Part shown: piece by piece, positions 56,677 to 56,763 of the stretch | How the letters are laid out: the number at the start of each line of letters is the position of its first letter | Position numbering within the stretch: the first letter of the stretch is position 1 | Assembly: GCF_050320075.1 (NCBI RefSeq) | Contig: NZ_CP190018.1 | DNA: 64,000 bases | Source of the DNA: Escherichia coli | Lineage (GTDB): Bacteria > Pseudomonadota > Gammaproteobacteria > Enterobacterales > Enterobacteriaceae | Direction: 5' to 3' (one strand) | Notes under the pieces: model-generated | Database searches by the model: none | Told to the model about the DNA's origin: nothing | The model's input: only the letters and a program-made list of their open reading frames with translations | Program-made: the position numbers and the translations under genes

Positions 56677-56763
56677 ATGAAACTGCGCAAGATCCTGAAA
56701 AGTATGTTCAATAACTATTGCAAAACGTTCAAAGACGTACCACCAGGCAATATGTTCCGATAG
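56677..56763 (+). CDS. azuC: Small membrane-associated protein AzuC (28 aa)
   Basis: ATG at 56677 encodes MKLRKILKSMFNNYCKTFKDVPPGNMFR followed by TAG and an intrinsic terminator; not in ORF track because below the size cutoff. Confidence 0.75.
   Translation: MKLRKILKSMFNNYCKTFKDVPPGNMFR

Follow-up and report, generated by a model that had tools for sequence, protein, structure and literature searches.

The 28-codon reading frame between yecR and yecJ in an Escherichia coli genome as part of the azuCR dual-function RNA locus

The spacer between yecR and yecJ in the stretch of Escherichia coli DNA analysed here (64 000 nucleotides of contig NZ_CP190018.1, assembly GCF_050320075.1; hereafter the window, with positions counted from its first letter) contains a reading frame of only 28 codons, which raises the question of whether so short a frame is a gene and, if it is, whether a small protein is all that the locus specifies. 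The frame had been read, from the letters alone, as the small protein gene azuC with a terminator of its own, lying between yecR and yecJ and escaping the ORF track because it fell below the threshold. The list of ORFs agrees with the last point, as the frame appears there only as the 3' part of a TTG-started ORF of 48 aa (56617..56763), which is itself shorter than 60 aa. Forty ORFs of at least 20 aa overlap the same 2.5 kb, and an ORF of 28 codons is thus not beyond chance by itself. Since the frame alone is unremarkable, the case for azuC rests on sequence comparison.

Identity of the 28-codon reading frame

The frame, which opens with ATGAAA and closes with CGATAG, translates as MKLRKILKSMFNNYCKTFKDVPPGNMFR followed by the stop. 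Alignment with K-12 azuC, named in the original prediction as a way to check the assignment, showed the peptide to be identical to E. coli K-12 AzuC (b4663) at 28/28 residues, while the coding sequences differed at 4 of 87 nt, every one of them silent (AAG/AAA, AAA/AAG and CCA/CCG, with TAG/TAA at the stop). Residues 2-27 of the 28 matched NF033642, the NCBIfam equivalog model for 'stress response protein AzuC', at 75.9 bits (E 1.3e-21), where the cut-off is 30, and the naming of the peptide as AzuC is upheld by both results. The whole 463-bp yecR-yecJ spacer could be aligned without gaps to that of E. coli K-12 MG1655, and a 451-bp query around azuC found a match in 5419 of the 5426 complete E. 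coli genomes. For the strains listed with 100% identity across the 451 bp, RefSeq places a CDS 'azuC: stress response protein AzuC' at the same position and in the same setting, reading away from yecR and with yecJ immediately downstream. The coordinates and Pfam matches of both neighbours (Table 1) likewise confirm that azuC lies between them.

Identity with K-12, the equivalog match and the purifying selection seen in 50 orthologues (described below) together place azuC beyond chance. We therefore take the locus to be the already known azuCR dual-function locus of E. coli, with a probability of about 0.97, and nothing that we found contradicts this identity.

Table 1. Coordinates of the azuCR locus, its control elements, its neighbours and yecU in the window
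Feature	Position	Strand	Remarks
yecU	44673..44849	-	58 aa; the only other intact annotated CDS below 60 aa in the window
yecR	56091..56414	-	Pfam YecR, 3.1e-30
Distal CRP box TGTGATTTGCATCACA	56579..56594	+	Centre at -48.5 from the transcription start; overlaps published FNR and PhoP sites
Sigma-70 promoter	56601..56628	+	-35 TTGATT (56601-06), 16-nt spacer, -10 TATTAT (56623-28)
Proximal CRP box TGTGATGGTTGTCATA	56609..56624	+	Centre at -18.5, within the promoter
AzuCR (AzuR/IsrB/IS092) transcript	56635..56798	+	3' end at 56793 by RefSeq azuR (159 nt), at 56798 by the published 164 nt
FnrS pairing site CACCTGC	56646..56652	+	25-31 nt upstream of the ORF; position from PMC8915982
Shine-Dalgarno GGAG	56666..56669	+	7 nt before the ATG
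azuC CDS	56677..56763	+	ATG, 28 codons, TAG stop; product a cationic amphipathic peptide
Predicted AzuR base-pairing region	56719..56746	+	Transcript nt 85-112, within the ORF; coordinates predicted here
Intrinsic terminator	56765..56791	+	AAAAAA-CCTGC-TCCG-GCAGG-TTTTTTT, one base after the stop
TACTAT, -10-like hexamer	56850..56855		About 22 nt upstream of the yecJ ATG
yecJ	56878..57129	+	Pfam DUF2766, 2.7e-55

The AzuCR transcript, its control elements and its two products

As a description of the locus, the small coding sequence stood but was incomplete, since K-12 annotates a same-strand sRNA over it, the ncRNA azuR (b4434, 1987843..1988001), which encloses the CDS and has its 5' end at K-12 position 1988001. 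A BLAST search with K-12 azuR matched the window with 95.6% identity over 159 nt, at 56635..56793. The transcript doubles as the base-pairing sRNA AzuR/IsrB/IS092, so that what the locus specifies is the dual-function AzuCR RNA (from about 56635 to 56798) and not a small CDS alone. The 164-nt RNA, formerly IS092/IsrB, has been described as the dual-function AzuCR and its start site has been mapped (Raina et al. 2022, PMC8915982).

At the level of sequence, the window holds a same-strand unit of about 160 nt with a sigma-70 promoter at one end and an intrinsic terminator at the other. The promoter scored 9/12 matches in a promoter scan, with the -10 ending 7 nt before the K-12-equivalent start at 56635. 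CRP has been reported to repress AzuCR transcription (PMC8915982), and the position of the proximal CRP box is consistent with repression through occlusion; with one such box inside the promoter and a second just upstream, transcription would be repressed when glucose is absent. A 2025 study reported that FNR, NarP and PhoP also act as repressors, from sites immediately upstream of the promoter (PMC12266141), and when carried over from K-12 coordinates through the gap-free alignment these sites map to 56560..56597, where those of FNR, NarP and PhoP would overlap the upstream CRP box.

A further layer of control would act on translation. FnrS pairs 25-31 nt upstream of the ORF of azuC and blocks its translation (PMC8915982), and nt 1-7 of K-12 FnrS, GCAGGTG (GCAGGUG in the RNA), are the perfect 7-nt complement of CACCTGC at 56646-52. 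Under anaerobic conditions FnrS would pair with CACCUGC in the 5' UTR, and AzuC translation would be blocked.

The terminator ascribed to azuC in the original prediction was recovered as a hairpin with a U-tract, and this hairpin (CCTGC/GCAGG with the loop TCCG) forms the end of the minimum free energy fold predicted for the 159-nt RNA. A strong intrinsic terminator of this kind would stop the AzuCR RNA before yecJ. A simple terminator scan did not pick it up, the sole call being an unrelated weak site at 56485. When the Rfam 15 covariance models were run over the locus no family reached its gathering score; matches to STnc370, rsmX and istR were rejected, as they lay far below their gathering scores and aligned only to the terminator hairpin. 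Rfam 15 appears to contain no model for AzuCR, and the missing match thus says nothing against the AzuCR identity.

The mapped start site also bears on which frame is translated, as the in-frame ORF 56617..56763 is open throughout and the real gene could be envisaged as this longer 48-aa version. Its TTG, however, precedes the mapped transcription start (56635) by 18 nt, within the promoter spacer, and has no Shine-Dalgarno sequence ahead of it; furthermore, indels in the 5' UTR among orthologues are not multiples of three, and the NCBIfam model covers the 28-aa form only. Since the start of the 48-aa ORF lies upstream of the transcription start and the 5'-UTR indels break its frame, we exclude it and give it next to no probability, leaving the 28-codon azuC frame as the one that would be translated.

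The AzuCR transcript of about 164 nt would therefore carry out two jobs, as the mRNA for AzuC, translated from the ATG at 56677, and as the sRNA AzuR. In K-12, translation of AzuC has been demonstrated with an SPA-tagged protein and by ribosome profiling, and the peptide, which is amphipathic and membrane-associated, co-purifies with GlpD and raises dehydrogenase activity (PMC8915982); the function and regulation of azuCR are also covered by PMC12612679. In the window, residues 1-20 of AzuC gave a helical hydrophobic moment of 0.53, the average over shuffled sequences being 0.23 (p about 0.014), and the peptide has a net charge of +6. By analogy with K-12, AzuC would be a 28-aa amphipathic, membrane-associated protein that binds and stimulates GlpD.

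The second job involves base pairing. AzuCR RNA represses cadA near the ribosome-binding site and galE inside the coding sequence by direct pairing, and as the pairing region is located within the azuC ORF, translation and pairing interfere with each other (PMC8915982). In the window, TTGCAAAACGTTCA is complementary to K-12 cadA from -14 to +16. A windowed RNAduplex scan with K-12 cadA and galE as targets predicted a duplex with the cadA 5' region at -24.1 kcal/mol when the window allele was used, compared with -25.2 kcal/mol for the K-12 allele, and this predicted site agrees with the published description of the pairing region. For galE, GTACCACC could be read by eye as complementary to GGTGGTA early in the coding sequence, and the candidate duplexes, in which GUACC(A/G)CC would pair with GGUGGUA, ranged from -18.8 to -20.5 kcal/mol, with optima that differed between the window and K-12 alleles. 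The AzuR stretch inside the ORF would repress both cadA and galE, by pairing with the ribosome-binding region of the former and the coding region of the latter. Since the ORF and the pairing region overlap, translation and pairing would compete. From the K-12 literature we infer that translation, GlpD binding, repression of cadA and galE, and control by CRP and FnrS would hold in this strain.

The window and K-12 AzuCR (b4663/b4434) share the protein and the flanking genes yecR, yecJ, ftnA and ftnB, together with the promoter, CRP boxes, FnrS site, Shine-Dalgarno sequence, pairing region and terminator, and the anatomy of the locus in the window is intact. Over the 164-nt RNA the two alleles are separated by seven substitutions, namely three in the 5' UTR (56652, 56662 and 56663), three silent codon changes, and TAG for TAA as the stop. 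Two of the differences, at 56724 and 56742, are inside the predicted pairing region; the CCA codon at 56742 is a rare state, found elsewhere only in Buttiauxella among the aligned orthologues. At 56652, 56724 and 56742 a G·U wobble in K-12 is replaced by a Watson-Crick pair in the predicted duplexes of the window, and as these three changes give Watson-Crick for G·U pairs, function is probably kept with the window allele. For the FnrS site in particular, K-12 CACCTGT ends in a G·U pair whereas CACCTGC in the window forms seven Watson-Crick pairs.

Among related systems, SgrS/SgrT of E. coli resembles AzuCR as an enterobacterial dual-function RNA of carbon metabolism which combines a small protein with mRNA pairing. 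In contrast to AzuCR, where they overlap and compete, the ORF and the pairing region of SgrS are separate, and there is no sequence relationship between the two. Spot 42/SpfP of E. coli and VcdRP of Vibrio cholerae are, like AzuCR, CRP-repressed dual-function RNAs, but their sequences, targets and protein partners are unrelated to those of AzuCR.

Other small genes and variable spots in the window

The 60-aa length filter was alone responsible for azuC having been overlooked, and current RefSeq annotation includes the gene. Being a textbook dual-function RNA that the RefSeq pipeline already annotates, the locus is of little import for the window as such. It does carry a lesson of method, as a 60-aa ORF threshold conceals a real, regulated gene, and a reading confined to coding sequences overlooks the sRNA in the same 164 nt.

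It had also been suggested that other genes of fewer than 60 aa may exist, and this was only weakly supported. The census of small genes drew on the existing RefSeq annotation of strain 746, which by BLAST shares 99.3% identity with the window from 5793 to 64000, and on that of K-12. It yielded yecU (Table 1), which is 100% identical to its K-12 counterpart and shares 14 nt with the start of yecF; yodC (60 aa) and dsrB (62 aa) are just over the threshold. In the islet described below, the same annotation shows no CDS below 60 aa.

This islet (48763..52766) is an insertion of about 4 kb relative to K-12, situated immediately behind the tRNA Gly-Cys-Leu cluster. The 67-nt 3'ETS-leuZ occurs on either side of the islet, at 48690..48756 and 52823..52889, in copies that are 100% identical, so that a known sponge-RNA sequence is duplicated here as an att-like direct repeat. 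Two overlapping genes on the + strand of the islet, 50656..51984 and 51981..52592, constitute a Septu anti-phage system, with PADLOC matches to the AAA ATPase PtuA (2.1e-190) and the HNH nuclease PtuB (6.1e-61). They are adjoined by an integrase fragment and by an ORF of 243 aa, the latter without a match to a defence family.

Similarity also breaks at two other places in the window, against strain 746 at 5119..5793, adjoining a yedS-type porin gene, and against K-12 at 37207..38127, in the yedN/intG pseudogene region beside fliE. Both look like local variable spots.

Conservation of AzuC and its control region in the Enterobacteriaceae

Scanning one genome per species with the degenerate pattern M-K-[LF]-x-K-[IV]-L-K-x-M-F returned at least 60 stretches. 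The ordinary E. coli representative is absent from the listed matches, and nothing can accordingly be concluded from a genus, such as Salmonella, being missing. Among the matches listed, 50 were azuC orthologues and 10 were chance matches in unrelated taxa. Of the orthologues, 49 were intact ORFs (27-28 codons) and one was a frameshifted copy; they came from at least 16 named genera: Escherichia, Citrobacter, Klebsiella (oxytoca group), Raoultella, Kosakonia, Leclercia, Cedecea, Siccibacter, Franconibacter, Buttiauxella, Silvania, Superficieibacter, Dryocola, Intestinirhabdus, Pluralibacter and 'Enterobacter sp.'. The frameshifted copy (locus L030, Enterobacter sp. EA-1) carries a 2-nt insertion (GA) at azuC codons 23-24, which changes the product to 34 aa, and may reflect a genuine pseudogene or else an indel in the assembly.

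These orthologues provide the evidence on whether the RNA is purely non-coding, with the 28-codon ORF being incidental, as in the original IS092/IsrB annotation. The locus was first described as an sRNA (PMC8915982), K-12 still has an ncRNA feature over it, and ORFs of 28 codons are frequent by chance. In the 50 orthologues, however, variable sites were distributed over first, second and third codon positions as 8, 7 and 24 of 27, and mean pairwise pN/pS was 0.097 in frame as opposed to 3.56 and 1.45 in the shifted frames; it was still 0.126 for codons 12-27, which are outside the search pattern. This codon-position pattern, together with pN/pS, constitutes a strong and independent coding signal. 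The GGAG Shine-Dalgarno sequence is nearly invariant in the 51-sequence alignment, which likewise counts against an incidental frame. The codon-position pattern and the published tagging and ribosome profiling of AzuC (PMC8915982) together exclude a purely non-coding RNA, for which we see hardly any chance.

[quoted passage not shown] In the 51-sequence alignment the promoter block TTGATTTTTGTGATGnnnGTCATATTAT, the -35 and the proximal CRP box fused to the -10 are nearly invariant, and the GTGA-N6-TCAC core of the distal CRP box is conserved. The 5'-UTR motif TAACACCTGCATAACAA, which holds the FnrS site, is near-invariant as well, with the consensus CACCTGC present in most of the 51 sequences. 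In the RNAalifold consensus, 9 pairs of the terminator are kept in 47-50 of 50 sequences whereas its loop varies; no conserved RNA structure beyond the terminator was supported by RNAalifold (covariation term -0.41 kcal/mol, one pair with double changes).

Gene order is conserved too, with yecJ downstream of azuC and on the same strand in about 45 of the 50 loci. In most of the non-Escherichia genera (among loci L012-L070), yecR and azuC are separated by an additional 1-4.5 kb of DNA, about 2.3 kb being common; Escherichia is devoid of it, and the azuC-yecJ pair stays together in the genera that have it. Such linkage could be taken to mean that azuC is a leader or upstream cistron of yecJ, with read-through of the terminator driving yecJ and the two forming one conserved unit. 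This would fit the same-strand adjacency, with an ATG-to-ATG distance of 160-210 nt in most species, and a simple scan which found no + strand promoter between the two genes. In contrast, the terminator is strong and nearly invariant, a discrete 164-nt RNA has been published (PMC8915982), and yecJ is preceded by the conserved -10-like TACTAT, which is kept in nearly all of the 45 species though the remainder of the azuC-yecJ spacer cannot be aligned. Conservation of this hexamer within an unalignable spacer points to a promoter belonging to yecJ itself. A shared unit is thus improbable, and AzuCR is better regarded as a transcript that ends before yecJ. In Klebsiella and Raoultella, the TACTAT is only about 20 nt past the azuC terminator.

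The same comparison across genera reveals K-12 nucleotides that look derived. Position 56652 (K-12 1987984) is C in the window and in most of the other 50 aligned sequences, and T in K-12; as C matches the family consensus, the K-12 T in the FnrS site looks derived. The strain used for the FnrS experiments carries what looks like a derived, slightly weaker pairing allele.

How widely and how tightly the peptide and its control region are conserved is the mildly new point of this analysis. The literature gives the range of azuC as a restricted set of enteric bacteria. Judged from the alignments, AzuC and its control module (CRP boxes, FnrS site, terminator and linkage to yecJ) are conserved more widely and more tightly than this statement suggests. 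The core of the cadA-pairing stretch, on the other hand, varies, as all four bases are seen outside Escherichia at the third position of Thr17, a position that in E. coli pairs with cadA. Several of the genera that carry an orthologue are lysine-decarboxylase negative in identification tables. Tentatively, and at rather less than even odds, the small protein under CRP and FnrS control may be the ancestral state of the locus, and the activity of AzuR on cadA a later addition specific to Escherichia.
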